From assembly GCF_058153355.1 (NCBI RefSeq), contig NZ_CM177019.1: a DNA stretch of 64,000 nucleotides. The stretch is one strand, 5' to 3'. A model generated the notes under the pieces. The model saw only the letters and a list, made by a program, of their open reading frames with translations. It did not search any database and was not told the DNA's origin. The translations under genes were made by a program, and so were the position numbers. Below, in pieces: positions 3,110 through 64,000 of this stretch; the first letter of the stretch is position 1, and each line of letters starts with the position of its first letter.

Positions 3110-3282
3110 CAAGTTCTTTTGTGTTGCATTGCTGGCGTAAATGTCAGCAATGCAGCATTTCCTCACGATTCTCCTTTGACGATCGCACTTTTTGCTCGTT
3201 ATGATGGCGTCGCTAGCCTCAGTAAATCCTTACTCCGGCGGTGCGCAACCTGTGCGCGTGAACCACTATCTGAATGCTCATC

Positions 3283-4215
3283 ATGCCGAAATTTCGAGTT
3301 TCTTTATTTAGCCTGGCCCTGATGCTGGCTGTGCCTTTTGCGCCGCAGGCCGTTGCGAAAACGGCAGCCGCTACCACCGCTTCACAACCGGAAATTGCTT
3401 CCGGTAGCGCGATGATTGTTGATCTGAATACCAACAAAGTGATCTATTCGAACCACCCGGATCTGGTGCGTCCGATTGCGTCTATCAGTAAATTAATGAC
3501 CGCGATGGTCGTGCTGGATGCGCGACTGCCGCTGGATGAAAAACTAAAAGTGGATATCAGCCAGACGCCGGAGATGAAAGGGGTCTATTCGCGCGTACGA
3601 CTGAACAGCGAAATCAGCCGTAAAGATATGCTGTTGCTGGCGCTGATGTCTTCAGAAAACCGCGCGGCGGCAAGCCTTGCGCACCATTATCCCGGTGGCT
3701 ACAAAGCCTTTATTAAGGCGATGAATGCGAAAGCGAAATCGCTCGGAATGAACAACACGCGCTTTGTTGAACCGACCGGATTGTCGGTGCATAACGTTTC
3801 AACTGCCCGTGACTTAACCAAACTGCTTATTGCCAGCAAACAATATCCATTGATCGGGCAGTTAAGTACTACCCGGGAAGATATGGCAACCTTCTCTAAC
3901 CCGACGTATACGCTGCCGTTCCGCAATACTAACCATCTGGTGTATCGCGATAACTGGAATATTCAGTTAACCAAAACCGGTTTTACCAATGCGGCGGGCC
4001 ATTGTCTGGTGATGCGCACGGTTATCAATAATAAACCGGTGGCGCTGGTAGTGATGGATGCGTTTGGCAAATATACCCATTTTGCCGATGCCAGCCGCCT
4101 GCGTACCTGGATTGAAACCGGTAAAGTGATGCCAGTTCCGGCAGCAGCGTTGAGCTATAAAAAACAAAAAGCCGCCCAGATGGCGGCGGCGGGGCAGACG
4201 GCGCAGAACGATTAA
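3283..4215 (+). CDS. pbpG: D-alanyl-D-alanine endopeptidase (PBP7, class C low-molecular-weight PBP)
   Basis: Signal peptide ([25 protein letters not shown]) followed by the active-site SxxK motif (ASISKLMTA) and an SxN motif (SSEN). Confidence 0.9.
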
Positions 4216-4224
4216 GGGTAGGCA

Positions 4225-4300
4225 GAATAAGGCGTTTACGCCGCATCCGGCATTCGGAGCACAATGCCTGATGCGATGCTTCTATTTGCATCAGGCATCC
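4225..4300. repeat. REP element between convergent pbpG and dld
   Basis: ggcgtttacgccgcatccggca … tgcctgatgcg palindromic units typical of REP. Confidence 0.55.
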
Positions 4301-4308
4301 AGCCGTAT

Positions 4309-6024
4309 TTACTCCACTTCCTGCCAGTTTTTCCGCTTACTGGTTTTACCGATCCCCGGATTCATGCTGTTGGTCGGATCGTTCTCGCGATAGAACTTCT
4401 GCAACGTCTCCGGTGCTTTATACAAATGACCGACGTTATGCTCGGCAGGGTATTGCGCGCCGCGCTGCTGTAGCAGTTCCAGCATCTGTTCTTTCAACGC
4501 ATGCACATCCACGCCTTTTTTAACGATGTAATCCTGATGGAAGACATAGCACATAAAATGGCCGTAATAGAGCTTGTGCACCAGCTGGCAGTCGATCTCC
4601 GGCGGTAAATGCTCATACCACTCGGTGTCGTTACGCCGCAGAGCGATATCCAGCGCCAGAATGTCTTCGACTTCATCGGAATGCACGGCCTGATAACGAA
4701 TTGCTGCGCCCGCAGCGGCGAAACGGTGTAAAAACGCTTTGCTGCCTTCCTCCGGCGTACAGACAAAGAAATCGCCCTCGGCCTGTTTGAAATAATCCAC
4801 CAGCCACGATTTAGCTTCGCCGACGCCATCGCCCGCCATTTTTAACAGCAGATGATGTTCATATTTATCGCGCCAGCTTTTCATGCGCGGTGGTAAATGG
4901 CTGGGGAACAAGTGACCGAATTTTTGCATCGCACGGTCGGTAAAATGCGGACGGAAGAATTTCACTTTCTCCAGCATCGCATCGGTGCGTCCCTTGAGAT
5001 TAAAGAAGAACGGCATCTTGTCGGTGCCTAACTTATCAATCATCAGGAAGGTATCTTTGCCGTATTTTTCCGCAATATCGTAGATATCCCGGTGCATATA
5101 TTCCCCGGCAACTGGCAGATTTTCGAAATTAGCCAGAATATGACGGCGGATTTCGGTCAGTACTTCCGGCTGGTTGGTGCCGATATAAAACACCTGCTGG
5201 TTTTTTTCCGCTTCGAAGGTATCAAGACGTACCGCAAAGACGGCCAGTTTACCGGCGCAACCGGAGGATTCAAACAGGCGATCCGGGTCGGCGTTATAAC
5301 GTGCGGGTGTGTCGGCTTCAATATCACGAACGCGGTGGACATAGTCATAATCGTGGGCGTGACGACCATCGTGGCGAATATCATCTTCTTTGATGCGATC
5401 GTCATCCAGCTTGCTAAGGATCTGCTCCGGCGTTTCGCCCAGATCAATCCCCAGATGATTCACCAGCGTCAGTTTGCCTTCTTCATTTATACGCGCGAAT
5501 AACGACATTTCGGTATACGCCGGGCCACGCTGCACCAGCGAGCCGCCGGAGTTGTTACAAATACCGCCGATGACCGATGCGCCTATACACGATGATCCAA
5601 TCACTGAGTGCGGTTCGCGTCCCAGCGGTTTGAGGGCTTTTTCCAGCGAATAGAGTGTGGTGCCCGGATAGGCCAGCACCTGTTCGCCCTTACCGAGTAC
5701 GTGCAGCTTGTCGAGACGCAGGGTGCTGATGATCACGATATCGCGATCATAATCGTTACCGTTTGGCGTCGATCCTTCGGTCAGACCTGTATTGGCGGCC
5801 TGCATCAGAATAATTTTGTCGGCGGTGACGCAGGCTTTCAGCACCCGCCACAATTCCAGTAGTGAGCCAGGGAAAACGACAGCCAGCGCGTCGCCCTGAC
5901 CAGAACGGAAGCCCTTGCGATAGCGGGCCGTTTTTGCGGGATCGGTGAGCAGGTGTGAATGACCGACCAGACGGGCAAGTTCATTCAAAAAGGCTTTATT
6001 ATCAGTTGTTGTCATGGAAGACAT
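4309..6024 (-). CDS. dld: FAD-dependent membrane-associated D-lactate dehydrogenase
   Basis: 571-aa ORF recognised as Dld; start set at MSSMTTTDNK, which has an AAGGAG ribosome-binding site 6 nt upstream (the track ORF begins 11 codons earlier). Confidence 0.9.
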   Translation of the reverse strand: MSSMTTTDNKAFLNELARLVGHSHLLTDPAKTARYRKGFRSGQGDALAVVFPGSLLELWRVLKACVTADKIILMQAANTGLTEGSTPNGNDYDRDIVIISTLRLDKLHVLGKGEQVLAYPGTTLYSLEKALKPLGREPHSVIGSSCIGASVIGGICNNSGGSLVQRGPAYTEMSLFARINEEGKLTLVNHLGIDLGETPEQILSKLDDDRIKEDDIRHDGRHAHDYDYVHRVRDIEADTPARYNADPDRLFESSGCAGKLAVFAVRLDTFEAEKNQQVFYIGTNQPEVLTEIRRHILANFENLPVAGEYMHRDIYDIAEKYGKDTFLMIDKLGTDKMPFFFNLKGRTDAMLEKVKFFRPHFTDRAMQKFGHLFPSHLPPRMKSWRDKYEHHLLLKMAGDGVGEAKSWLVDYFKQAEGDFFVCTPEEGSKAFLHRFAAAGAAIRYQAVHSDEVEDILALDIALRRNDTEWYEHLPPEIDCQLVHKLYYGHFMCYVFHQDYIVKKGVDVHALKEQMLELLQQRGAQYPAEHNVGHLYKAPETLQKFYRENDPTNSMNPGIGKTSKRKNWQEVE

Positions 6025-6219
6025 TTTCCACTCCTTGTGGTGGCGAAAAAATATCACAAACTAGAATAGCGCCTTGTATGACAATTCAGCGAGTGAATAT
6101 TTTGAAAATTCAGACAATAAACTGAGCATTCTTTTTCTCTCTCTATCATGCTTATGGCAAACTACGGTTTTTGCACCATTTTCGCTGCCTCGTCGGGCAA
6201 CAGAGGAAGAAAAATCCAT

Positions 6220-8517
6220 ATGAAATGGCTATGTTCAGTAGGAATCGCGGTGAGTCTGGCCCTGCAGCCAGCACTGGCGGATGATTTATTCGGCAACCAT
6301 CCATTAACGCCCGAAGCGCGGGATGCGTTCGTCACCGAACTGCTTAAGAAAATGACAGTTGATGAGAAAATTGGTCAGCTGCGCTTAATCAGCGTCGGCC
6401 CGGATAATCCGAAAGAGGCGATCCGCGAGATGATCAAAGACGGGCAGGTTGGGGCGATTTTCAACACCGTAACCCGTCAGGATATCCGCGCCATGCAGGA
6501 TCAGGTGATGGAATTAAGCCGCCTGAAAATCCCTCTTTTCTTTGCTTACGACGTGCTGCACGGTCAACGCACGGTTTTCCCGATTAGCCTCGGTCTGGCC
6601 TCTTCTTTTAATCTTGATGCGGTGAAAACGGTCGGGCGTGTCTCTGCTTATGAAGCCGCAGATGATGGCCTGAACATGACCTGGGCACCGATGGTCGATG
6701 TCTCGCGCGATCCGCGCTGGGGACGTGCTTCCGAAGGTTTTGGCGAAGATACGTATCTCACTTCGATTATGGGTAAAACCATGGTGGAAGCGATGCAGGG
6801 TAAAAGCCCGGCAGATCGCTACTCGGTGATGACCAGCGTCAAACACTTTGCCGCTTACGGCGCGGTAGAAGGTGGTAAAGAGTACAACACCGTCGATATG
6901 AGTCCGCAGCGCCTGTTTAATGATTATATGCCGCCGTACAAAGCGGGGCTGGACGCAGGCAGCGGCGCGGTGATGGTGGCGCTGAACTCGCTGAACGGCA
7001 CGCCAGCCACCTCCGACTCCTGGCTGCTGAAAGATGTTCTGCGCGACCAGTGGGGCTTTAAAGGCATCACCGTTTCCGATCACGGCGCAATCAAAGAGCT
7101 GATTAAACATGGCACGGCGGCAGACCCGGAAGATGCGGTGCGCGTGGCACTGAAATCGGGCATCAACATGAGTATGAGCGACGAGTATTACTCGAAGTAT
7201 CTGCCTGGGTTGATCAAATCCGGCAAAGTGACGATGGAAGAGCTGGATGACGCTGCCCGTCATGTACTGAACGTGAAATATGATATGGGGTTGTTTAACG
7301 ACCCGTACAGCCATCTCGGTCCGAAAGAGTCTGACCCGGTGGATACCAATGCCGAAAGCCGCCTGCACCGCAAAGAAGCGCGTGAAGTGGCACGCGAAAG
7401 CCTGGTGTTGCTGAAAAACCGTCTCGAAACGTTACCGCTGAAAAAATCAGCCACCATTGCGGTGGTTGGGCCACTGGCGGACAGCAAACGTGACGTGATG
7501 GGCAGCTGGTCCGCAGCCGGTGTTGCCGATCAATCCGTGACCGTACTGACCGGGATTAAAAATGCCGTCGGTGAAAACGGTAAAGTGCTGTACGCCAAAG
7601 GGGCGAACGTTACCAGTGACAAAGGCATTATCGATTTCCTGAATCAGTATGAAGAGGCGGTCAAAGTCGATCCGCGTTCGCCCCAAGAGATGATTGATGA
7701 AGCGGTGCAAACCGCGAAACAATCTGATGTGGTGGTGGTTGTGGTCGGTGAAGCTCAGGGGATGGCGCACGAGGCTTCCAGCCGTACCGATATTACTATT
7801 CCGCAAAGCCAACGTGACTTGATTGCGGCGCTGAAAGCCACCGGTAAACCGCTGGTGCTGGTGCTGATGAACGGACGTCCACTGGCGCTGGTGAAAGAAG
7901 ATCAGCAGGCTGATGCGATTCTGGAAACCTGGTTTGCGGGGACTGAAGGCGGTAATGCGATTGCCGATGTGTTGTTTGGCGATTACAACCCGTCGGGCAA
8001 GCTGCCGATGTCCTTCCCGCGTTCTGTCGGGCAGATCCCGGTGTACTACAGCCATCTGAATACCGGTCGGCCGTATAATGCCGACAAGCCGAACAAATAC
8101 ACTTCGCGTTATTTTGATGAAGCTAACGGGGCGCTGTATCCGTTCGGCTATGGTCTGAGCTATACCACCTTCACCGTCTCTGATGTGAAACTTTCTGCGC
8201 CGACCATGAAGCGTGACGGCAAAGTGACCGCCAGTGTGCAGGTGACGAACACCGGTAAGCGCGAAGGGGCGACGGTAGTGCAGATGTACTTGCAGGATGT
8301 GACGGCTTCCATGAGTCGCCCGGTGAAGCAGCTGAAAGGCTTTGAGAAAATCACCCTGAAACCGGGCGAAACTCAGACCGTCAGCTTCCCGATTGATATC
8401 GAGGCGCTGAAGTTCTGGAATCAACAGATGAAATATGACGTCGAGCCTGGCAAGTTCAATGTCTTTATCGGCACTGATTCCGCACGCGTTAAGAAAGGCG
8501 AGTTTGAGTTGCTGTAA
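6220..8517 (+). CDS. bglX: Periplasmic beta-glucosidase (glycoside hydrolase family 3)
   Basis: Signal peptide (MKWLCSVGIAVSLALQPALA) and GH3 motifs; start at the ATG after AGAGGAAGA (25th codon of the track ORF). Confidence 0.9.
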   Translation: MKWLCSVGIAVSLALQPALADDLFGNHPLTPEARDAFVTELLKKMTVDEKIGQLRLISVGPDNPKEAIREMIKDGQVGAIFNTVTRQDIRAMQDQVMELSRLKIPLFFAYDVLHGQRTVFPISLGLASSFNLDAVKTVGRVSAYEAADDGLNMTWAPMVDVSRDPRWGRASEGFGEDTYLTSIMGKTMVEAMQGKSPADRYSVMTSVKHFAAYGAVEGGKEYNTVDMSPQRLFNDYMPPYKAGLDAGSGAVMVALNSLNGTPATSDSWLLKDVLRDQWGFKGITVSDHGAIKELIKHGTAADPEDAVRVALKSGINMSMSDEYYSKYLPGLIKSGKVTMEELDDAARHVLNVKYDMGLFNDPYSHLGPKESDPVDTNAESRLHRKEAREVARESLVLLKNRLETLPLKKSATIAVVGPLADSKRDVMGSWSAAGVADQSVTVLTGIKNAVGENGKVLYAKGANVTSDKGIIDFLNQYEEAVKVDPRSPQEMIDEAVQTAKQSDVVVVVVGEAQGMAHEASSRTDITIPQSQRDLIAALKATGKPLVLVLMNGRPLALVKEDQQADAILETWFAGTEGGNAIADVLFGDYNPSGKLPMSFPRSVGQIPVYYSHLNTGRPYNADKPNKYTSRYFDEANGALYPFGYGLSYTTFTVSDVKLSAPTMKRDGKVTASVQVTNTGKREGATVVQMYLQDVTASMSRPVKQLKGFEKITLKPGETQTVSFPIDIEALKFWNQQMKYDVEPGKFNVFIGTDSARVKKGEFELL

Positions 8518-8526
8518 TGCTTTAGT

Positions 8527-8550
8527 AAGGGCGCGACGTCTGCGCCCTTT

Positions 8551-8552
<2 letters not shown>
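8527..8552 (+). terminator. Hairpin downstream of bglX
   Basis: aagggcgc-gacgtct-gcgccctt stem-loop followed by a short T run. Confidence 0.4.
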
Positions 8553-8650
<98 letters not shown>

Positions 8651-8789
8651 AACGCCGGGCAAAATATGCCCTTTAAGTATTTATCTGATTCTGCAACTGA
8701 ATCCTTCCGCTCAGGCTAACCCCGCCATTATCAACTATGCTTTTCTCTTAATTCGCTGAAAACAACAGTAAAAGAATGAGGAAAGCATC

Positions 8790-9707
8790 ATGCCACTCTC
8801 AAAGCTCTGGGCAGGTTCACTGGTTTTGTTGGCAGCCGTGAGCCTGCCGCTACAGGCGGCTTCCCCCGTTAAAGTCGGTTCGAAAATCGATACCGAAGGC
8901 GCGCTACTCGGCAACATTATTTTGCAAGTGCTGGAAAGCCACGGCGTACCGACGGTGAATAAAGTCCAGTTGGGAACCACGCCGGTGGTGCGCGGGGCGA
9001 TTACTTCCGGTGAACTGGATATCTATCCGGAATATACCGGCAATGGCGCGTTTTTCTTTAAAGATGAAAACGATGCGGCGTGGAAAAATGCCGGGCAAGG
9101 CTACGAGAAAGTCAAAAAGCTCGATGCAGAACAAAACAAGTTAATCTGGCTGACGCCTGCGCCTGCAAATAACACCTGGACCATCGCCGTGCGTCAGGAT
9201 GTTGCAGAGAAAAACAAACTCACTTCGCTTGCCGACCTGAGTCGTTATCTGAAAGACGGTGGCACCTTCAAACTGGCGGCCTCAGCAGAGTTTATCGAAC
9301 GCGCCGATGCCTTACCCGCTTTTGAAAAAGCCTATGGCTTTAAGCTCAGTCAGGATCAGTTGCTGTCACTGGCCGGTGGCGACACTGCGGTGACAATCAA
9401 AGCTGCTGCCCAGCAAACATCCGGCGTTAATGCGGCGATGGCTTACGGCACCGACGGCCCGGTCGCGGCGCTGGGGCTGCAAACCTTAAGCGATCCGCAA
9501 GGCGTGCAACCTATCTACGCGCCTGCACCAGTGGTGCGTGAATCGGTGTTGAAGGAGTATCCGCAAATGGCACAGTGGCTACAGCCAGTCTTCGCCAGCC
9601 TCGATGCAAAAACATTGCAGCAACTGAATGCCAGCATTGCTGTGGAAGGACTGGATGCCAAAAAAGTGGCTGCCGACTACCTGAAACAAAAAGGGTGGAC
9701 GAAGTAA
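8790..9707 (+). CDS. osmF: Periplasmic glycine betaine/osmoprotectant-binding protein of an ABC transporter
   Basis: Signal peptide plus substrate-binding protein fold; first gene of a binding-protein/permease/ATPase/permease operon. Confidence 0.9.
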   Translation: MPLSKLWAGSLVLLAAVSLPLQAASPVKVGSKIDTEGALLGNIILQVLESHGVPTVNKVQLGTTPVVRGAITSGELDIYPEYTGNGAFFFKDENDAAWKNAGQGYEKVKKLDAEQNKLIWLTPAPANNTWTIAVRQDVAEKNKLTSLADLSRYLKDGGTFKLAASAEFIERADALPAFEKAYGFKLSQDQLLSLAGGDTAVTIKAAAQQTSGVNAAMAYGTDGPVAALGLQTLSDPQGVQPIYAPAPVVRESVLKEYPQMAQWLQPVFASLDAKTLQQLNASIAVEGLDAKKVAADYLKQKGWTK

Positions 9708-9713
9708 TTTCCC

Positions 9714-10871
9714 GTGACTTATTTCCGTATTAATCCTGTTCTGGCGCTGCTGCTGTTGCTGACGGCAATCGCAGCGGCGCTGCCGTTTATCAGTTACGCG
9801 CCTAATCGTTTAGTCTCGGGTGAGGGGCGTCATCTCTGGCAGCTGTGGCCGCAAACGATCTGGATGCTGGTGGGCGTTGGTTGCGCCTGGCTGACCGCCT
9901 GTTTTATTCCCGGTAAAAAAGGCAGCATTTTTGCACTCATTCTGGCGCAATTCGTCTTCATATTGCTGGTGTGGGGCGCGGGAAAGGCGGCGACACAACT
10001 GGCGCAAAATGGCAGTGCGCTGGCGCGTACCAGCCTCGGCAGTGGTTTCTGGCTGGCTGCGGCGCTGGCATTGCTGGCCTGTAGCGATGCCATCCGCCGA
10101 ATCTCCACGCATCCGCTGTGGCGCTGGTTGTTGCATATGCAGATTGCCATTATTCCGCTGTGGTTGCTGTACTCCGGTACGCTTAACGATCTTTCGCTAA
10201 TGAAAGAATACGCCAACCGTCAGGATGTGTTTAATGACGCGCTGGCGCAACATCTGACGTTGCTGTTTGGTGCGGTGCTGCCTGCGTTAGTGATTGGTGT
10301 GCCGCTGGGCGTCTGGTGCTACTTTTCCACTGCGCGGCAGGGGGCGATTTTTTCTCTGCTGAATGTCATTCAGACCGTGCCTTCGGTGGCGCTCTTTGGC
10401 CTGTTGATTGCGCCGCTTGCCGCGCTGGTTACGGCCTTTCCGTGGCTGGGTAAGCTCGGCATAGCAGGAACCGGAATGACACCCGCACTGATTGCGCTGG
10501 TGCTCTATGCCTTGCTGCCGCTGGTGCGCGGTGTGGTAGTCGGCTTGAACCAGATCCCGCACGATGTGCTGGAGAGCGCCACAGCGATGGGCTTGAACGG
10601 AGCACAGCGATTCCTGCATGTGCAGCTACCGCTGGCGTTACCGGTATTTCTGCGCAGCCTGCGGGTGGTGATGGTGCAAACCGTCGGCATGGCGGTGATT
10701 GCGGCATTAATCGGCGCAGGTGGTTTTGGTGCGCTGGTTTTCCAGGGGCTGCTAAGCAGTGCCATTGATTTAGTGTTGCTGGGGGTGATCCCGGTAATCG
10801 TACTGGCGGTGCTGATCGACGCACTGTTCGATCTGGTTATCGCACTGCTGAAGGTGAAACGTAATGATTGA
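9714..10871 (+). CDS. yehY: ABC transporter permease (osmoprotectant uptake)
   Basis: GTG start; polytopic membrane ORF in the osmF operon. Confidence 0.85.
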
Positions 10872-11790
10872 ATTTAGCCATGTCAGCAAACTGTTCGGCA
10901 CACAAAAAGCCGTTAACGATCTCAATCTCAATTTTCAGGAAGGGAGTTTTTCGGTGCTGATTGGTACATCAGGCTCCGGTAAATCCACCACATTGAAAAT
11001 GATCAACCGTCTGGTAGAGCATGACAGCGGAGTGATCCGCTTTGCCGGAGAAGAAATTCGCTCGCTGCCAGTGCTGGAGTTACGCCGCCGGATGGGCTAT
11101 GCCATTCAATCTATTGGCCTGTTTCCCCACTGGAGCGTGGCGCAAAACATTGCTACTGTGCCGCAATTACAAAAATGGTCGCGGGCGCGGATCGACGACC
11201 GTATCGACGAATTAATGGCGCTACTGGGGCTGGAGCCGAATTTGCGTGAGCGTTATCCGCATCAGCTTTCCGGCGGTCAGCAGCAACGTGTGGGAGTGGC
11301 CCGCGCACTGGCTGCCGATCCGCAAGTCTTACTGATGGATGAACCCTTTGGCGCACTGGACCCGGTAACGCGCGGCGCGTTGCAACAAGAGATGACGCGT
11401 ATTCACCGTTTGTTAGGGCGCACCATTGTGCTGGTCACTCATGATATTGATGAGGCGCTACGGCTGGCAGAACATCTGGTATTGATGGATCACGGTGAAG
11501 TGGTGCAGCAGGGCAATCCGCTGACGATGCTGACTCGTCCGGCGAATGAATTTGTCCGCCAGTTTTTTGGCCGTAGTGAACTGGGTGTGCGCCTGCTTTC
11601 GTTACGTAGCGTGGCGGATTATGTGCGCCGCGAAGAGCGGGCTGAAGGTGAGGCGCTGGCAGAAGAAATGACGCTACGCGATGCGCTCTCCCTGTTTGTC
11701 GCGCGGGGATGCGAAGTGCTGCCGGTGGTGAACACGCAGGGCCAGCCTTGCGGTACGCTGCATTTTCAGGATCTGCTGGTGGAGGCGTAA
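10864..11790 (+). CDS. yehX: ABC transporter ATP-binding protein
   Basis: Walker A (GTSGSGKST), ABC signature (LSGGQQQR), Walker B (LLMDEP); overlaps the yehY stop by 8 nt. Confidence 0.9.
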
Positions 11791-11794
11791 GCGT

Positions 11795-12526
11795 ATGAAG
11801 ATGTTGCGCGATCCGCTGTTCTGGCTCATTGCTCTGTTTGTGGCGCTGATTTTCTGGCTGCCTTACAGCCAGCCGCTGTTTTCTGCCTTGTTCCCACAAC
11901 TGCCACGACCCGTTTATCAGCAAGAAAGTTTTGCCGTCCTGGCGCTGGCCCATTTCTGGCTGGTGGGAATTTCGAGTTTGTTTGCTGTGATCATTGGCGT
12001 TGGTGCCGGAATTGCCGTCACTCGACCGTGGGGTGCGGAATTTCGCCCACTGGTAGAAACTATCGCTGCCGTTGGGCAGACTTTTCCGCCCGTCGCGGTG
12101 CTGGCGATTGCTGTTCCGGTGATGGGGTTTGGTCTGCAACCGGCGATTATCGCCTTGATCCTGTACGGTGTGCTGCCCGTCCTGCAGGCGACACTTGCCG
12201 GGCTGGGATCGATTGATGCCAGCGTGACAGAAGTTGCTAAAGGTATGGGAATGAGCCGTGGTCAGCAACTGCGTAAGGTCGAGCTACCGCTGGCGGCTCC
12301 GGTGATTCTGGCGGGCGTGCGAACTTCGGTGATTATCAACATTGGTACGGCGACGATCGCCTCAACGGTAGGGGCCAGCACGCTGGGTACGCCCATCATC
12401 ATCGGGCTTAGCGGATTTAATACCGCGTATGTGATCCAGGGGGCGTTACTGGTGGCACTGGCGGCGATCATCGCAGACCGCCTGTTTGAAAGGCTGGTGC
12501 AGGCGCTTAGCCAGCACGCAAAATAA
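11795..12526 (+). CDS. yehW: ABC transporter permease
   Basis: Multi-TM permease ORF immediately after yehX. Confidence 0.85.
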
Positions 12527-12614
12527 AGGTATAACCTGCGAGCATGACGCCACCAATTCCGCCTAACGCCATAAACAGGAACAGGGCGATGACCCCAATT
12601 TTAGCTATGCGCAT
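12507..12614 (-). CDS. yohO: 35-aa small membrane protein convergent with, and overlapping, the 3' end of yehW
   Basis: Minus-strand [38 protein letters not shown] with one predicted TM helix; absent from the supplied ORF track because it is below the size cutoff. The gene name is from memory. Confidence 0.5.
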
Positions 12615-23785: not shown

Positions 23786-23867
23786 ATAAAAAAACCTGCT
23801 GGTGAGGCAGGTTCTTTTATTTACTACTTTGACGATAACTTGCTGATTGTGCAACATTTCGTACCAA
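23786..23867 (-). ncRNA. orzO: Putative OrzO-like antisense sRNA (type I antitoxin), about 80 nt
   Basis: Minus-strand promoter (-35 TTGCAA, 17-bp spacer, perfect -10 TATAAT), an 18-nt 5' segment complementary to the zorO-like 5' UTR with one G-U wobble, and an intrinsic terminator. Transcript ends are inferred. Confidence 0.5.
23793..23813 (-). terminator. Rho-independent terminator (stronger on the minus strand)
   Basis: 7-bp stem aacctgc/gcaggtt with loop tggtgag, followed on the minus strand by TTTTTTTATTT. Confidence 0.6.
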
Positions 23868-24106: not shown

Positions 24107-24196
24107 ATGGACACGCTGACACAAAAGTCAACCGTGCTCATTGCCGTACTGGAGTTATTAGTGGCTCTGTTGCGGTTGATTGATTTGTTGAAGTAA
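24107..24196 (+). CDS. zorO: 29-aa hydrophobic peptide, type I toxin-like (ZorO/DinQ/TisB class)
   Basis: AAGGAG 5 nt upstream of ATG; translation MDTLTQKSTVLIAVLELLVALLRLIDLLK is a single amphipathic/TM helix resembling known type I toxins. Not in the supplied ORF track (below cutoff). Confidence 0.55.
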   Translation: MDTLTQKSTVLIAVLELLVALLRLIDLLK

Positions 24197-46566: not shown

Positions 46567-46839
46567 ATGTCTCATACAATCCGTGATAAACAGAAACTGA
46601 AAGCGCGTGCCAGTAAGATTCAGGGCCAGGTCGTGGCGCTCAAGAAAATGCTCGACGAGCCGCACGAATGCGCAGCTGTTCTACAACAGATTGCTGCTAT
46701 CCGTGGCGCGGTAAACGGCCTGATGCGCGAAGTGATTAAGGGGCATCTGACGGAACACATCGTTCACCAGGGGGATGAGCTAAAACGTGAAGAAGATCTG
46801 GATGTCGTTCTGAAGGTGCTGGATTCTTATATCAAATGA
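46567..46839 (+). CDS. rcnR: Ni/Co-responsive repressor (CsoR/RcnR family)
   Basis: 90-aa ORF recognised as RcnR. Confidence 0.9.
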
Positions 46840-46908
46840 AAGTGCCTAATATGGCCGTAGTTGAGGCAATAAATAGAGGGACAAGTGACGTTAAGCTGAA
46901 TTAGAGTA

Positions 46909-46932
46909 AATGGCGTGAGGACACACGCCATT
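46909..46932. terminator. Hairpin between rcnR and the convergent small-protein gene
   Basis: aatggcgtg-aggaca-cacgccatt. Confidence 0.4.
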
Positions 46933-46948
46933 CGAGGATATAGTTTGA

Positions 46949-47263
46949 TTAATTTTCGAAAAATTGCTTCACAGCCCAGCCACCATGACCACCTGGAGTT
47001 ATGAATGAAACAAAACCTTTGTCATCGACGCTCTGGATTTCTACTGTCATTGATTCATCTAACACGCGACATTTATTGGATGTAATGAGACTCAGCATAG
47101 CCTGTTGGTCATTGTCCTGGATGTAACTGATCATCTCGTAAAAGTCAGTTAACTTTTTACAGTTAAATGTACCTTCTTTAAGTGTTGCGCTGTCTCCGTG
47201 ACTTAGTGCGAATGCATTTGGCATCATTGCCACAAAGATGACGGTAACGAGTAGTTTTTTCAT
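46949..47263 (-). CDS. Small secreted hypothetical protein (104 aa)
   Basis: Signal peptide (MKKLLVTVIFVAMMPNAFA); lies in a visibly AT-rich segment. Confidence 0.55.
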   Translation of the reverse strand: MKKLLVTVIFVAMMPNAFALSHGDSATLKEGTFNCKKLTDFYEMISYIQDNDQQAMLSLITSNKCRVLDESMTVEIQSVDDKGFVSFITPGGHGGWAVKQFFEN

Positions 47264-47272
47264 TGTAGCCTC

Positions 47273-47620
47273 TTATAATTCAGAACATTCACTGATGTTG
47301 TAAGTGCCTTTTCTACCATCATCGTTTACGAGATGTAGCACGAAGATGATGGGATTGGCATCAATGAAAGATACAGAGACGTTCCCGCTTTCGGTGCTAT
47401 ACATCTTTGCAATCTGTTTTTCACCAATATATGAAAGATCCCAACTCACTCCGTTCAAGCTAAAATGCATCTGTTTGCCGTCAATATCGATGGAGGATTG
47501 TGCCGTAACGGTTTTCCCATTGCTGCCAATTTGACCCTGCTGAAGAGCATCACATTTATAGGAGCTTGCATAAGTAAATAGAGGTAGTAGCAGAAGTGCA
47601 GCAAAAATTTTACTCTTCAT
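47273..47620 (-). CDS. Small secreted hypothetical protein (115 aa)
   Basis: Signal peptide (MKSKIFAALLLLPLFTYASS), two Cys residues; 9 nt upstream of the 104-aa ORF, so probably a bicistron. Confidence 0.55.
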   Translation of the reverse strand: MKSKIFAALLLLPLFTYASSYKCDALQQGQIGSNGKTVTAQSSIDIDGKQMHFSLNGVSWDLSYIGEKQIAKMYSTESGNVSVSFIDANPIIFVLHLVNDDGRKGTYNISECSEL

Positions 47621-48258
47621 ATTTTCCCTTTGCTTGGATTTGAGTTACCTATTTTGGGGTAGTCATTATAAAACTATTAATTAGTAAAATGAACAAGTTT
47701 TCATTTGTTTAGTAATGGTATTGTTTAGGTTTGAAATTATTACGTACTTTCATAGCAATAGGTTGGATAAACAGCAGTTCAGAGAACAAGTTGCACTATC
47801 TACATACTTTCCCGCTTTCCATTGTATGTTAGGTAATAGATAGCCTTTGCCCGTAAGACTAAAAATATTAGAAATGACTCATTCGAATACCTTCTATTCA
47901 CCTTAATATAGGTTTGATTATTGTAATCGTTTAATGTGTCTTATGGATTTTTTCCTACTTTTCATTTGCATAATATAGGGGGCACAGCATGCTCTTGAAA
48001 TTAATTATTAAGATATTTAAATTTTACAGCACACAACTACTTTTCGTTGTCTTATGTGTTGAACGTACTTCGAGTATAGGTAGGGTTGTATATATATTGC
48101 GTGGGTAGAGTTAGAATAGAGGAGGCATCATTTATAGAATATTCAAGAACGTTAACCTGTGATCAATAAATAAAAATATCAAATGGTGTTCAAACATATT
48201 TTTCTATGAAAAATCCAGCCATCTATGATGAATTTTTAGATCCATTTTAATTAAAGTA

Positions 48259-48537
48259 TGATTATGAACCAATATTTAGCCAAGAATGGTGGTATAGCGC
48301 GTATCCAATGACACCGGAAAACGCATCTATGAAGTCCTTGTTTATCTCTATAAGAGGAAATCAACACTAATAAAATATAGTGATGTAACACATCGAGCAG
48401 GTTGCTCTGATGCTGGTCTTCAACTGTGGCTTAAACAGCTATCAAACTTCGGTGTTATTGAGATGAAAGAATTATCTTTCTCAACTTTCAATCTCAAAAA
48501 GCTAGAGGAAATAGACCTTAATTATTCCACTCTCTAA
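48259..48537 (+). pseudogene. Possible frameshifted gene remnant
   Basis: ATG-initiated frame MIMNQYLAKNGGIARIQ* continues after a +1 shift as …VSNDTGKRIYEVLVYLYKRKSTLIKYSDVTHRAGCSDAGLQLWLKQLSNFGVIEMKELSFSTFNLKKLEEIDLNYSTL*; no clean start or RBS for the long frame. Confidence 0.2.
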
Positions 48538-48673
48538 ACTTATCTCTTTATTTAAAGTAAAAATGAAAATATTATGGTATCAGCTACGTGGTGGTAACTG
48601 GTGTTTATGATCATAGGTACACATATACAGGGAACCCTGGAAAACAAAAGTAATATATTGATGATTTCGTTTG

Positions 48674-48913
48674 TTATAACTTCGTGGTATCAAGTCCGGC
48701 GGCTTTGAGTCGCTCGGTAAGATTTCTCATTTTGCTGAACTCTGTACCAAAGCTGGCTTTAAGTCCTACACCTTCGCAAAACTCTTTTGCCGTGACGTTT
48801 TTAAGATGGTCAGCGTATTTGATCATCTGGAGGTGCATTTCCATCGTTTGGCTATTTCGTGGTGCGCTGCTAATGGCTTGCTTAATGTTCTCGTAGATCT
48901 GGGTTTCTGTCAT
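48674..48913 (-). CDS. Hypothetical 79-aa protein
   Basis: Intact ORF (MTETQIYENIKQAISSAPRNSQ…) with AT-rich upstream region containing tandem direct repeats. Confidence 0.5.
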   Translation of the reverse strand: MTETQIYENIKQAISSAPRNSQTMEMHLQMIKYADHLKNVTAKEFCEGVGLKASFGTEFSKMRNLTERLKAAGLDTTKL

Positions 48914-48934
48914 TTTTTATCTCACCTATCAAAT

Positions 48935-48964
48935 TTAGATAAATAATATAAATTAGATAAATAA
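48935..48964. promoter_or_regulatory. Two direct repeats TTAGATAAATAA (18-bp register) just upstream of the 79-aa ORF
   Basis: Exact 12-nt repeats at 48935-48946 and 48953-48964. Confidence 0.3.
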
Positions 48965-49129
48965 GATAATCAATAGTTTTTACCATATGAATAATGGATG
49001 TGGATTGTTTCTTTTTCATTTCTGATATGGAGTACAAAATGGGGTCACAATGAAGAAGCGATGAATGGAGGCGAGCTTGCATCTGCAAGCCTCTTCCCCT
49101 AATCTGGCACAAAATATAGAGATTCAACC

Positions 49130-49258
49130 AAACGACTCGGGGTGCCCTTCTGCGTGAAGGCTGAGAAATACCCGTATCACCTGATCTGGATAATGCCAGC
49201 GTAGGGAAGTCACGGACCACCAGGTCATTGCTTCTTCACGTTATGGCAGGAGCAAACT
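49130..49258 (+). ncRNA. TPP (THI-box) riboswitch in the thiM leader
   Basis: cggggtgcccttctgcgtgaaggctgagaaatacccgtatcacctgatctggataatgccagcgtagggaa matches the canonical thiM aptamer; the expression platform runs into the thiM ribosome-binding site. Confidence 0.8.
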
Positions 49259-57048: not shown

Positions 57049-57064
57049 TACGCCTCATACGAAC

Positions 57065-57210
57065 AGCACTACCCCGTAGGGCGGATAAGGCGTTCACACC
57101 GCATCCGGCAACCTATGCCTGATGCGACGCTGAAGCGTCTTATCATGCCTACACAGCGCTGCCACGTATGCCGGATAAGGCGTTTACGTTGCATCTGGCA
57201 TAAAAACACG
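57065..57210. repeat. REP/BIME cluster (about three REP units) after fbaB
   Basis: Repeated ggataaggcgtt(c/t)ac(a/g)c(c/t)gcatc(c/t)ggca and tgcctgatgcgacgc units. Confidence 0.55.
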
Positions 57211-57217
57211 CGCACTT

Positions 57218-57248
57218 CGTTACGGCTTCCCCCGGGAGGCCGTTTTTT
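57218..57248 (+). terminator. Rho-independent terminator
   Basis: cggcttccc-cc-gggaggccg stem followed by eight T. Confidence 0.6.
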
Positions 57249-57298
57249 TTACCTGTCATTCTGATTAATTTTCATATTGTCGTTTTTGTGATCGTTAT

Positions 57299-58232
<934 letters not shown>

Positions 58233-58233
58233 A

Positions 58234-59510
<1,277 letters not shown>

Positions 59511-59519
59511 GGACGGTAT

Positions 59520-59969
59520 ATGACTAACCTGTTTGTTCGTAGCGGAATTTCTTTTGTCGATCGTAGCGAAGTTTTAACCCATATCGGTAATGAGATGATC
59601 GCGAAAGGTGTGGTTCATGAAACCTGGCCACAGGCATTAATTGCCAGAGAAGCAGAATTCCCCACCGGGATAATGCTTGAACAGCACGCCATTGCAATAC
59701 CGCATTGTGAGGCGATTCATGCTAAGTCGTCAGCTATTTATCTGTTAAGACCGGCGAATAAAATAAAGTTTCAGCAAGCTGATGATGATAACGACGTGGC
59801 GGTGTCGTTGATTATCGCGCTGATTGTCGAAAATCCGCAGCAGCAACTGAAGCTTTTGCGGTGCTTATTTGGCAAGTTGCAGCAACCAGATATCGTTGAA
59901 ACGCTAATCACCATTTCTGAATCGCAATTAAAGGAATATTTCACACAGCATATTTTAGATTCCGAATAA
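59520..59969 (+). CDS. gatA: Galactitol PTS enzyme IIA
   Basis: 149-aa ORF with PTS IIA-like sequence. Confidence 0.85.
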   Translation: MTNLFVRSGISFVDRSEVLTHIGNEMIAKGVVHETWPQALIAREAEFPTGIMLEQHAIAIPHCEAIHAKSSAIYLLRPANKIKFQQADDDNDVAVSLIIALIVENPQQQLKLLRCLFGKLQQPDIVETLITISESQLKEYFTQHILDSE

Positions 59970-60003: not shown

Positions 60004-60294
60004 ATGAAACGCAAGATAATTGTCGCTTGCGGAGGCGCGGTTGCGACCTCTACGATGGCGGCGGAAGAAATTAAAGAGTTGTGCCATAGCCATAATATCC
60101 CCGTTGAAGTAATCCAGTGTCGGGTTAATGATAATGAAATAGAAACCTATATGGATGGCGTACATCTTATTTGTACTACCGCCAGAGTTGACCGCAGTTT
60201 TGGCGATATTCCGTTAGTTCACGGCATGCCTTTTGTTTCTGGTGTCGGTATCGAAGCATTACAAAATAAAATTCTGACTATCTTACAGGGGTGA
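60004..60294 (+). CDS. gatB: Galactitol PTS enzyme IIB
   Basis: Small ORF with the active-site Cys near the N-terminus ([16 protein letters not shown]…). Confidence 0.85.
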
Positions 60295-60297
60295 CCT

Positions 60298-61653
60298 ATG
60301 TTTTCAGAAGTCATGCGTTATATTCTCGACCTCGGCCCTACGGTCATGTTGCCGATTGTCATCATTATTTTTTCTAAGATATTAGGCATGAAGGCAGGCG
60401 ATTGCTTTAAAGCGGGTCTGCATATCGGGATTGGCTTTGTTGGTATCGGCCTGGTGATTGGCTTAATGCTGGATTCCATTGGCCCGGCGGCGAAAGCAAT
60501 GGCGGAAAATTTCGACCTGAATCTGCATGTGGTCGATGTCGGCTGGCCGGGCTCTTCACCAATGACCTAGGCGTCGCAAATTGCGCTGGTGGCGATTCCG
60601 ATTGCGATTCTGGTTAACGTGGCGATGCTACTGACCCGTATGACGCGGGTGGTAAATGTTGATATATGGAATATCTGGCATATGACCTTCACCGGCGCAT
60701 TGCTGCATCTGGCAACCGGTTCATGGATGATAGGGATGGCGGGTGTGGTAATTCACGCGGCGTTTGTTTATAAGCTCGGCGACTGGTTTGCCCGCGATAC
60801 CCGAAATTTCTTTGAGCTGGAAGGCATTGCTATTCCGCACGGTACGTCGGCGTATCTGGGGCCAATTGCGGTGCTGGTCGATGTTATCATCGAGAAAATC
60901 CCAGGGGTTAACCGTATTAAATTTAGCGCCGACGATATTCAGCGCAAATTTGGCCCATTTGGCGAACCTGTCACCGTGGGCTTTGTGATGGGGCTGATTA
61001 TCGGCATCCTCGCGGGTTACGATGTCAAAGGTGTATTACAGCTGGCGGTAAAAACGGCGGCAGTTATGCTGCTGATGCCACGGGTGATTAAACCCATCAT
61101 GGATGGTTTAACGCCCATCGCTAAGCAGGCCCGTAGTCGTTTACAGGCGAAGTTCGGCGGTCAGGAGTTCCTGATTGGCCTTGATCCGGCGTTGCTGCTG
61201 GGGCATACGGCGGTGGTATCGGCAAGCCTGATTTTTATCCCGCTCACCATTTTAATTGCTGTTTGTGTTCCGGGTAATCAGGTACTGCCGTTTGGCGACC
61301 TTGCCACCATCGGCTTCTTTGTTGCGATGGCAGTTGCCGTGCATCGTGGAAATCTGTTCCGCACCTTAATCTCGGGTGTCATCATTATGAGCATCACCCT
61401 GTGGATCGCGACGCAAACTATTGGTTTGCACACCCAACTGGCGGCTAATGCTGGGGCGTTAAAAGCCGGGGGCATGGTGGCTTCAATGGATCAGGGCGGT
61501 TCTCCCATTACCTGGTTACTGATTCAGGTTTTCTCCCCGCAAAATATTCCCGGTTTCATTATTATCGGTGCCATTTATCTTACCGGTATTTTCATGACCT
61601 GGCGTAGAGCGCGCGGCTTTATTAAACAAGAGAAAGCCGTTCTCGCAGAATAA
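60298..61653 (+). pseudogene. gatC: Galactitol PTS enzyme IIC interrupted by an in-frame TAG at codon 91
   Basis: The two track ORFs 60298..60570 and 60589..61653 are in the same frame and separated only by TAG at 60568-60570 (…GWPGSSPMT*ASQIALVAIPIAILVN…). Confidence 0.8.
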
Positions 61654-61700: not shown

Positions 61701-62205
61701 ATGAAATCAGTGGTGAATGATACTGATGGTATCGTACGCGTTGCCCAACGAGTCATTCCTGAAATTAAACATCAGGATGAGGTGCGGGTAAAAATTGCCA
61801 GCTCGGGATTATGTGGTTCCGATTTACCCAGAATTTTTAAAAATGGTGCACATTATTATCCAATAACGTTAGGCCATGAATTTAGCGGCTATATTGATGC
61901 TGTGGGATCCGGTGTTGATGATTTACATCCTGGCGATGCGGTTGCCTGTGTGCCGTTATTACCCTGTTTTACTTGTCCAGAGTGTCTGAAAGGGTTTTAT
62001 TCCCAGTGCGCAAAATATGATTTTATTGGCTCACGGCGTGATGGTGGGTTTGCCGAATATATTGTCGTTAAGCGGAAAAATGTCTTTGCTCTACCTGCGC
62101 ATATGCCTATTGAGGATGGGGCTTTTATTGAACCGATTACCGTTGGCCTGCATGCTTTCCATTTAGCGCAAGGTTGTGAGAATAAAAACGTTATTATTAT
62201 TGGTG
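61701..62205 (+). pseudogene. gatD: Galactitol-1-phosphate dehydrogenase, 5' fragment, truncated by IS4
   Basis: Zn-dependent alcohol dehydrogenase N-terminus (…GLCGSDLPR…HEFSGY…) ending …ENKNVIIIG at the IS junction. Confidence 0.85.
62193..62205. repeat. Target-site duplication, left copy (ATTATTATTGGTG)
   Basis: Identical 13-bp sequence recurs at 63632-63644, immediately flanking the IS. Confidence 0.8.
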
Positions 62206-63631
62206 TAATGCCAGTCAGTTAAGCAACTGACTGGCTCTTTTTCGGGGCTGTGGGGTATTTCCAGGGCCTCTCCTTTACCACTCTCGGGAAGGCCCTTTCC
62301 CTTCTTGTCGGTAATTTCACAAGTTGTCCCATACTTGCAAGATCGCGCATCAGCTCCGGTATACGTCCCGGTGAAGCGCCCTGCAATGTCATCAGCATTC
62401 TCATCACCATTCCGCATGATTCTGAGAAACTCAGTTGATTCGGCCAGTAACCTTTCAGATGTTCCGCCATTTTAATCATCTGATATCTCACCAGATTATA
62501 AGCCAGTAAGACACCCCACAGCTCTTGCTCCACAAGCTCCGGCTTTTTACTTCTCAGCGTCAGCCTGCTCAGTTGCATCGTCTGTTTTATCTCCCTGTAT
62601 CCCAGTTCGATTTCCCAGCGATGACTGTACAGATCCGCCATTTCTCCTCCGGGGAAGCGCATGGCGTCCGTCATCGACGTCAGCAGATGGCAGACTTTTC
62701 CTTTGCGCGTCACGGTCAGCAGGCGGGCTGTCACTTCATTTCCCAGTCCCGGCCACTTTTTTCGTGCCTGCGGGCTGGTTTTCAGCTTCACCAGATGATC
62801 GCCTTTACCCAGTTTTCTGATCTCTTCATATTGCGCTCCCTTTCTGAGAGGTATCATCCAGTGGCGGTGTTCTCCCGCCAGGCTCCAGGCATTTAACAGT
62901 CCCAGTGAGTAATAACCTTTATCCATTAACGTCAGAGTGTTATCGCCGGTTTGTTCTATAAGTTGCTCAGCAAGCTCATTTTCGCTGTTCTTCATCGTGC
63001 CGAAGGCTGCAGCCGTCAGCAGATGGCTGGTCAGTTCCATCTGGCAGACCATTTTGACCTGCGGGTAGAGCGCCGGGTTCCCGGCATGTGTCTGGCGGGG
63101 GAAGGCTGCATCGTTCTCTGGTGTATCCGGTGTGCGCCAGAACACACCATCGATGGCCAGCAGGGTCAGGCCGCACCAGTGCGGATGCGGCGTGGCGTTA
63201 TGCCAGAGCTGCGCTGTTTTCGTGAACACGCGGCGGACAGCCTCACTTCCCAGGCGCTGGCGGGCCTGAATAACGGCACTGGGGGCAACGAAGGGGCGAT
63301 TGCCCGGCAGCATGATGTCCAGGCGATTCACAATCTGGTGAAGAGGTTCTTTACGCTCAAGCGCCATGCCAACAATACACCAGACCATCATTTCGAGGGG
63401 AAGACGGCGCTTGCGTAGCGTTACAGTACCTGATTCGGCAAGGCAACGAGAGATGAGTTCGGGGTCGAGGTAATCCCCCAGAGAAGTCAGTGGGTTACGC
63501 AGAGAATCGTAACGGGATACCAGATCAAGAGCCTGTCCAATGTGCATAAAAAAATCCGGAAACAAGTGAGCGTTTCCGGATTCTTACACAGCCACTGGAT
63601 CGGTCAACTGATCCTTAACTGATCGGCATTA
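62206..63631 (-). mobile_element. IS4 insertion sequence (1426 bp)
   Basis: 18-bp imperfect terminal inverted repeats (taatgccagtcagttaag versus reverse complement taatgccgatcagttaag, 16/18), a single transposase ORF, 13-bp direct target duplication. Confidence 0.85.
62219..63547 (-). CDS. insG: IS4 DDE transposase
   Basis: 442-aa ORF from [15 protein letters not shown]…, recognised as the IS4 transposase. Confidence 0.85.
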
Positions 63632-63644
63632 ATTATTATTGGTG
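63632..63644. repeat. Target-site duplication, right copy (ATTATTATTGGTG)
   Basis: Exact repeat of 62193-62205. Confidence 0.8.
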
Positions 63645-64000
63645 CCGGAACCATTGGCCTGCTGGCCATTCAGTGCGCTGTCGCGCTGGGAGCAAAGAGT
63701 GTGACGGCTATCGACATTAGCTCAGAAAAACTGGCACTGGCAAAATCTTTCGGTGCGATGCAAACATTTAACAGCCTTGAAATGAGCGCGCCGCAAATGC
63801 AGCCCGTTTTACGCGAGCTGCGCTTTAATCAGCTTATCCTCGAGACGGCTGGCGTCCCGCAAACCGTCGAACTGGCGGTAGAGATTGCCGGGCCTCATGC
63901 CCAGCTGGCGCTGGTGGGCACGTTGCATCAGGATCTGCATTTAACATCGACAACGTTTGGCAAAATATTACGTAAAGAGCTGACGGTTATCGGCAGTTGG
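63632..64000 (+). pseudogene. gatD: Galactitol-1-phosphate dehydrogenase, 3' fragment (continues beyond the window)
   Basis: Reading frame resumes …IIIGAGTIGLLAIQCAVALGAKSVTAIDISSEKLALAKSFGA… (Rossmann GxGxxG). Confidence 0.85.

Follow-up and report, generated by a model that had tools for sequence, protein, structure and literature searches.

The window analysed in this study, a stretch of 64,000 nucleotides, carries near its right end the genes for galactitol catabolism. They are arranged in the order fbaB, gatY-Z-A-B-C-D, followed by gatR and yegS, the last two of which were read from a contig of the Logan assembly SRR31441161. The same organization of the gatYZABCD operon at the fbaB-yegS locus is found in Escherichia coli 2013C-4282 and in K-12. 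Lesions are present in two genes of the operon, with an internal stop codon in gatC and an insertion sequence in gatD (Table 1).

Table 1. Features of the gat operon and of the element inserted in gatD, with positions given in the coordinates of the window.
Feature	Position	Strand	Basis and remarks
gatY (tagatose-bisphosphate aldolase subunit), intact	57365-58219	+	98.1% nt identity to 2013C-4282, 1 aa difference, no internal stop
gatZ, intact	58248-59510	+	98.8% nt identity to 2013C-4282, 3 aa differences, no stop
gatA (PTS EIIA-Gat), intact	59520-59969	+	99.8% nt identity to 2013C-4282, no aa difference
gatB (PTS EIIB-Gat), open frame	60004-60294	+	in-frame 6-nt insertion, 96 vs 94 aa; blastn and translation vs 2013C-4282
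gatC (PTS EIIC-Gat), pseudogene	60298-61653	+	90-aa N-terminal product, then 354-aa ORF; also A196V
Amber TAG replacing GatC Trp91 (TGG), G to A	60568-60570	+	comparison with intact gatC
gatD 5' part, codons 1-168, ADH_N catalytic domain	61701-62205	+	ORF and domain match
Target-site duplication ATTATTATTGGTG (13 bp), left copy	62193-62205		gatD nt 493-505: codons I165-G168 and first base of A169
IS4, complete, 1426 bp	62206-63631	-	transposase antisense to gatD; 3 mismatches vs annotated K-12 MG1655 IS4
Terminal inverted repeat, transposase 3' side	62206-62223		sequence read
11-bp perfect hairpin followed by TCTTTTT, intrinsic-terminator-like	62210-62235	+	consensus match only
IS4 transposase gene (insG-type), 442 aa, intact	62219-63547	-	Pfam and motif
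Promoter-like match of sigma-70 type (TTGACC-16-AAGAAT with TG), ahead of the transposase ATG	63580-63607	-	consensus match only
Terminal inverted repeat, transposase 5' side	63614-63631		sequence read
Target-site duplication ATTATTATTGGTG (13 bp), right copy	63632-63644		exact repeat of the left copy
gatD 3' part, Rossmann/ADH_zinc_N domain from the GAGTIG motif	63632-64000	+	runs past the end of the window

In gatB, the inserted 6 nt are located at 60127-60138 (AATGAT AATGAA) and add an Asp-Asn pair in comparison with 2013C-4282, which could represent a third change in a transport gene. The intergenic region between fbaB and gatY (57049-57364) exceeds that of 2013C-4282 by about 90 nt through an additional REP-type repeat, and one REP copy (57079-57149) was called as naRNA4 by Rfam at the gathering threshold.

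As for the host, the window is, to judge by its nucleotide identities, a piece of chromosome of the E. coli group. Its divergence from all complete E. coli genomes is unusually high, the best identity being 98.1% at 3200-12600, 94.9% at 30000-54000 and 98.9% in the gat genes. The gat operon of the window shares only 90-95% identity with most of those in E. coli, pointing to two deep classes of gat alleles. Furthermore, metG presents a mosaic structure, with ends identical to K-12 and a diverged middle part, and a 47-mer from this gene had its sole match among GTDB representatives in Escherichia sp. MOD1-EC7003, which is only 92% identical. This part of the chromosome is located near the O-antigen cluster and is known for its unusual degree of polymorphism, and for this reason a deep-branching lineage is not claimed here.

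Several other features of the window can be mentioned. An OrzO-P antitoxin RNA recognised by Rfam (90.6 bits) adjoins a 29-aa ORF MDTLTQKSTVLIAVLELLVALLRLIDLLK, the two being located at 23788-23861 (-) and 24107-24196 (+), respectively, between yehL and a yehK-like ORF. The ORF presumably resembles the ZorO toxin, and the locus may be a zorO-orzO type I toxin-antitoxin system. The segment 24631-35889 (-) is taken up by a tandem of three large DUF4132 paralogues (1218, 1262 and 1265 aa), all with open frames, which correspond to yehI and two molR/yehH-type genes; the annotation of this region in K-12 MG1655 holds yehF and a yehH pseudogene. Between rcnR (46567-46839) and the TPP riboswitch/thiM (49128-), a low-GC stretch (about 0.43) of ~2.2 kb at about 46900-49100 is present where K-12 has ~220 nt. 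It holds three small ORFs (104, 115 and 79 aa), of which two have N-termini resembling signal peptides, and NCBIfam gave no match for any of the three. Cis-regulatory RNAs were found where expected, namely the Peptidase-S11 leader before pbpG at 3198-3278 (+) and the TPP riboswitch before thiM at 49128-49224 (+).

The IS4 element and its insertion site in gatD

A first-pass annotation of the window had described an IS4 copy in gatD, a 1426-bp element with 18-bp imperfect inverted repeats and a 442-aa DDE transposase, flanked by a 13-bp duplication. Sequence comparison and Pfam searches bear out this description, and the boundaries agree with the IS4 reference, as the element has the length and the ends of the MG1655 copy and differs from it by three mismatches (1423 of 1426 nt identical). 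PGAP-annotated IS4 copies are matched with 100% coverage and 99.9% identity. The terminal inverted repeats, TAATGCCAGTCAGTTAAG and TAATGCCGATCAGTTAAG, are 18 nt long, match at 16 of 18 positions and begin TAATG...TTA. They carry the signature -AATR--------WTW that characterises the ends of the IS4 subgroup (De Palmenaer et al. 2008, Table 1; PMC2266710). The transposase is encoded by a single ORF of 442 aa counted from the ATG, or 448 aa from an upstream TTG in the program-made ORF list. It contains the Pfam domains Nterm_IS4 (7.6e-33) and DDE_Tnp_1 (1.1e-31), shows the Y(2)R(3)E(6)K motif at residues 307-321, and differs from K-12 InsG in two residues (G304A, R326L). Size, end signature and duplication length all fit the IS4 subgroup, and the element is IS4 itself and not a relative. 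With its ORF and both ends intact, and with the insertion fresh and undecayed, this copy would be competent for transposition. Full-length IS4 copies (at least 95% identity) are present in 2,479 of the 5,426 complete E. coli genomes, in many of them as copies 99.9% identical to the present one, and genomes with any match have a median of one IS4 place and a maximum of 24.

The direct repeat ATTATTATTGGTG at the two sides of the element is exact. It cannot be extended in either direction, as T faces A on the left and T faces C on the right, so its length is exactly 13 bp, within the span of about one helix turn (10-13 bp) of IS4-subgroup duplications. A flanking match of 13 bp would arise by chance with a probability of ~4^-13 = 1.5e-8. 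The 13-mer occurs once in gatD of 2013C-4282, at nt 493-505, and the same empty site is present in gatD of K-12. When IS4 and one copy of the repeat are removed, with the 3' end of the gene completed from the SRR31441161 contig, the reading frame is continuous over 1041 nt, and all 1041 nt agree with gatD of E. coli 2013C-4282, which is intact and annotated by PGAP. The restored gene also confirms the earlier statement that the host frame resumes right after the right copy of the repeat. This identity, together with the domains ADH_N and ADH_zinc_N distributed over the two fragments, shows the orthology to galactitol-1-phosphate 5-dehydrogenase.

With respect to the product, the frame of the 5' part continues from 168 GatD residues into five residues (VMPVS) encoded by IS4 and ends at a TAA inside the element (62220-62222). 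As the insertion lies where the GAGTIG dinucleotide-binding motif begins, GatD would be reduced to its catalytic domain without the NAD-binding domain, which would imply a loss of function. In addition, the hairpin located just inside the IS4 end faces transcripts coming from gatD and would probably stop the read-through, thus exerting polarity.

Six further IS4 insertions were compared with the one in gatD (bcsG, the ydfJ side, ecpA, ytfQ/R, rcdA and the K-12 site). Duplications at these sites are 11-14 bp long. Five of these sites are preceded by an A-run (the ydfJ side, ytfQ/R, rcdA, K-12 and, less clearly, bcsG), ecpA being the exception. Where the duplication borders the inverted repeat on the transposase 3' side, it reads TTGGTG in gatD, TTGGGG at two other sites and CTGGTG at one. 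As a minor point, IS4 targets appear to be alike in an orientation-specific way, mostly with an upstream A-run and with a TTGG(G/T)G-like end of the duplication, and by this comparison the gatD site is a typical IS4 target. A consensus in which some 20 bp separate an A-run from a T-run was reportedly published for IS4 targets in the 1980s; the T-run half is absent at the gatD site.

The gatC amber codon and the distribution of the two lesions

The gat operon had been considered doubly hit, and the split gatD and the TAG at W91 of gatC indeed represent two lesions of the null type as far as sequence can tell. Around the amber codon, gatC reads ...SSPMT-TAG-ASQIALV..., leaving a product of 90 out of 451 residues. 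The downstream ORF of 354 aa starts with a GTG at 60589, where a convincing ribosome-binding site is not evident. The amber codon would remove both the uptake and the phosphorylation of galactitol; partial suppression of the amber, or complementation of the 90-aa fragment by the product of the 354-aa ORF, could count against such a loss. The nearest gatC allele is 99.6% identical, and the amber is thus not demonstrable as the sole change in the gene. The strain is predicted to be galactitol (dulcitol)-negative and galactitol-insensitive. In annotation terms, gatD and gatC merit pseudogene flags, the 1.4-kb element the label IS4 and the strain a dulcitol-negative prediction.

Regarding the distribution of the lesions, the IS4::gatD junction on either side is absent from the 5,426 complete E. 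coli genomes, and neither the genomes of GTDB species representatives nor the JGI metagenome contigs contain the junction. A 61-mer around the gatC amber has no exact match among the 4,950 E. coli genomes having that stretch, and genomes with a single one of the lesions were not encountered among the 5,426 searched for the junction and the 4,950 searched for the amber. Exact-protein look-ups of the two GatD fragments led to one contig each, both from the Logan assembly SRR31441161. The survey of isolates suggested in the first-pass annotation thus resulted in none of 5,426 complete genomes and in one Logan assembly with the junction. The contigs of this assembly align to the window without a single mismatch (10,531 and 399 nt), the gatC amber included, and as the read set may be the source data of the window itself, this match is not necessarily an independent confirmation. 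Both lesions are private, and the junction together with the amber codon offers a handy lineage-specific marker.

The SRR31441161 contigs also bear on the question of whether IS4 truly lies within gatD or was placed there by a mis-join during assembly. Both break off within IS4, after 26 and 30 nt, as a short-read assembly of a repeated element would. Copies of insertion sequences are classic sites of mis-assembly, and such contig breaks suggest more than one IS4 copy in the genome, which would give an opportunity for a chimera. However, a mis-join would not produce a target-site duplication, and here 13 bp that are single-copy in intact gatD are duplicated exactly. Excising the element in silico gives a perfect gene, and k-mers of both junctions occur in an assembly built straight from reads. 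Taken together, the junctions in SRR31441161, the perfect duplication and the perfect restoration of gatD rule out a chimera for practical purposes, and its probability can be regarded as very small. An assembly chimera, or boundaries unsupported by reads, had been named as what would refute the insertion; neither is likely here, with both junctions in the read-derived assembly and the duplication exact.

Regulation, order of events and selection

The first-pass annotation had placed gatR upstream of the window. The gene instead lies downstream of gatD, in the order gatD-gatR-yegS and beyond the right end of the window, as in 2013C-4282 and K-12. The suspicion that gatR could itself be disrupted does not hold for SRR31441161, where the gene is full length, encoding 257 aa with the single substitution S64N in comparison with GatR of both 2013C-4282 and K-12, and where the gatD-gatR intergenic region is unchanged. 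The gat operon is therefore probably repressed and regulated, and not constitutive. On the same contig, at 3694-6579 and thus outside the window, a P2-like prophage with integrase, Cox and RepB-type genes starts after yegR, downstream of gatR-yegS-yegR; in K-12, the cryptic prophage remnant PR-X (ogrK) is found at this position.

The state of gatR bears on the example given in the first-pass annotation, in which toxicity under constitutive expression of the operon would select for its loss. Such positive selection is known from K-12 in the mouse gut, where gat nulls, mostly IS insertions, sweep fast in the gatR::IS background, and IS insertions account for 79% of the gat mutations selected (PMC3945185). 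That the present lesions were selected in the same way is improbable. In the matching read set, the gatR gene that follows gatD is intact, which disfavours a constitutive operon, and gat-negative mutants failed to emerge in mice once gatR had been restored (PMC5850726). Moreover, a single null would be enough under this kind of selection, and the authors of the mouse study expect no gain from a second gat mutation (PMC3945185).

What is in our view highly probable is a real and recent transposition of IS4 into gatD, with the double lesion as an ordinary case of pseudogene formation in an operon that is dispensable and often lost. As gatD has acquired no further change (1041 of 1041 nt), the insertion is recent. 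In the proposed course of events, the DDE transposase would cut the target in the staggered manner of the IS4 family, the two cuts being separated by roughly one helix turn, and gap repair would generate the 13-bp duplication. Landing in the codons for Ile165-Gly168, IS4 would leave a GatD of 168 residues extended by 5 residues encoded by the element. Independently, the G to A change at Trp91 of GatC would create the amber codon and abolish the uptake and phosphorylation of galactitol. One gat null would come first, and neutral decay of the second gene would follow. In one possible order, gatC could have been lost first, either neutrally or under selection, leaving the operon uninducible and gatD a free target for IS4. 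The comparisons and searches show the identity and boundaries of the element, the duplication, the empty site, the nonsense codon, the rarity of the two lesions and an intact gatR in the matching read set. The loss of function, the polarity, the order of the events and the selective regime are what we infer.

The clustering of two hits in one operon had been taken as a sign of either selection or relaxed selection. About 50 other genes of the window are full-length ORFs by K-12 gene lengths, and for a second hit among about 50 genes to land in the same six-gene operon the chance is roughly 0.1. With such a chance, and with decay expected after a first null, the clustering is weak evidence for selection; relaxed selection, the other part of the suggestion, fits all the data. 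IS4 was found once in the 64 kb of the window. A genome decay of the Shigella type was also considered and rejected, with one IS in 64 kb and all other compared genes at full length.

Alternatively, the two lesions could be linked by sequential compensation. Here gatD::IS4 would be the first event, galactitol-1-phosphate would build up because uptake was still intact, making galactitol toxic, and the gatC amber would be selected as a suppressor blocking the uptake. Sugar-phosphate toxicity in dehydrogenase-negative, transport-positive hexitol mutants is said to be a classical observation of Lengeler's gat genetics and would agree with such a course. In the mouse-gut experiments, galactitol inhibited the ancestor expressing gat, and the relieving mutations that the main text names were in gatA, gatC, gatZ and the gatY regulatory region, gatD being absent from it (PMC3945185). 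That gatD is not among the relieving genes named is consistent with a gatD null alone giving no relief from the inhibition by galactitol. The unchanged sequence of gatD (1041 of 1041 nt) would also place both events close in time. However, with an intact gatR the expression requires induction, which would limit the exposure and with it the toxicity, and the reverse order, with gatC lost first and a neutral insertion of IS4 later, explains the same data without any toxicity. A genome with a single lesion, which could represent the intermediate, did not appear in either of the two genome searches, and the open literature gave nothing usable as direct evidence for galactitol sensitivity of gatD nulls. 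We consider sequential compensation possible but rather unlikely. If true, a suppressor pair fixed in an isolate from nature whose repressor is intact would be a case of natural compensatory pseudogenisation.

Comparison with known IS4 copies and gat losses

The preferred explanation, recent insertion and ordinary pseudogenisation, can be set against several known systems. The IS4 of K-12 (insG, MG1655 4502090-4503515), the type element of the IS4 family, has the same length, the same ends and a transposase of 442 aa, and the duplication in gatD falls within the 11-14 bp of other IS4 copies. In contrast, the K-12 copy is located in the yjgZ-nanX intergenic region, while the copy described here is in gatD and shows 3 nt and 2 aa differences.

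The gat locus of K-12 MG1655 is likewise multiply damaged, with gatC reduced to a pseudogene and a second gat gene hit by an IS, in a genome that is otherwise healthy. There, IS3E is inserted in gatR and makes the operon constitutive, whereas in the window IS4 is inserted in gatD and gatR is intact. Gat-null mutants of K-12 arise at about 1e-5 per generation (PMC5094792). The gat-negative K-12 mutants recovered from the mouse gut (Barroso-Batista 2014, PMC3945185; Sousa 2017, PMC5850726) carry IS insertions and small mutations as well, gatC nulls included. However, these were single hits in the constitutive gatR::IS background, in contrast to the two hits, one of them in gatD, next to an apparently intact gatR.

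Loss of galactitol use is also known from natural populations. The trait is polymorphic among gut isolates of healthy humans. Dulcitol is fermented by only about 60% of E. coli, and in STEC CC119 genomes 1-2 inactivated genes were found in each of four examined sugar gene sets, gat included (PMC10132054). CC119 is a natural lineage with 1-2 inactivated gat genes and without dulcitol fermentation (PMC10132054), comparable to the strain described here, although the lesions and the lineage are different and dulcitol-negativity is only predicted for the window strain. An IS4 insertion into an often-lost catabolic operon, accompanied by a nonsense mutation, is an ordinary event of an already known kind, and the locus adds one more natural case to the easy and repeated loss of the gat operon in E. 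coli.
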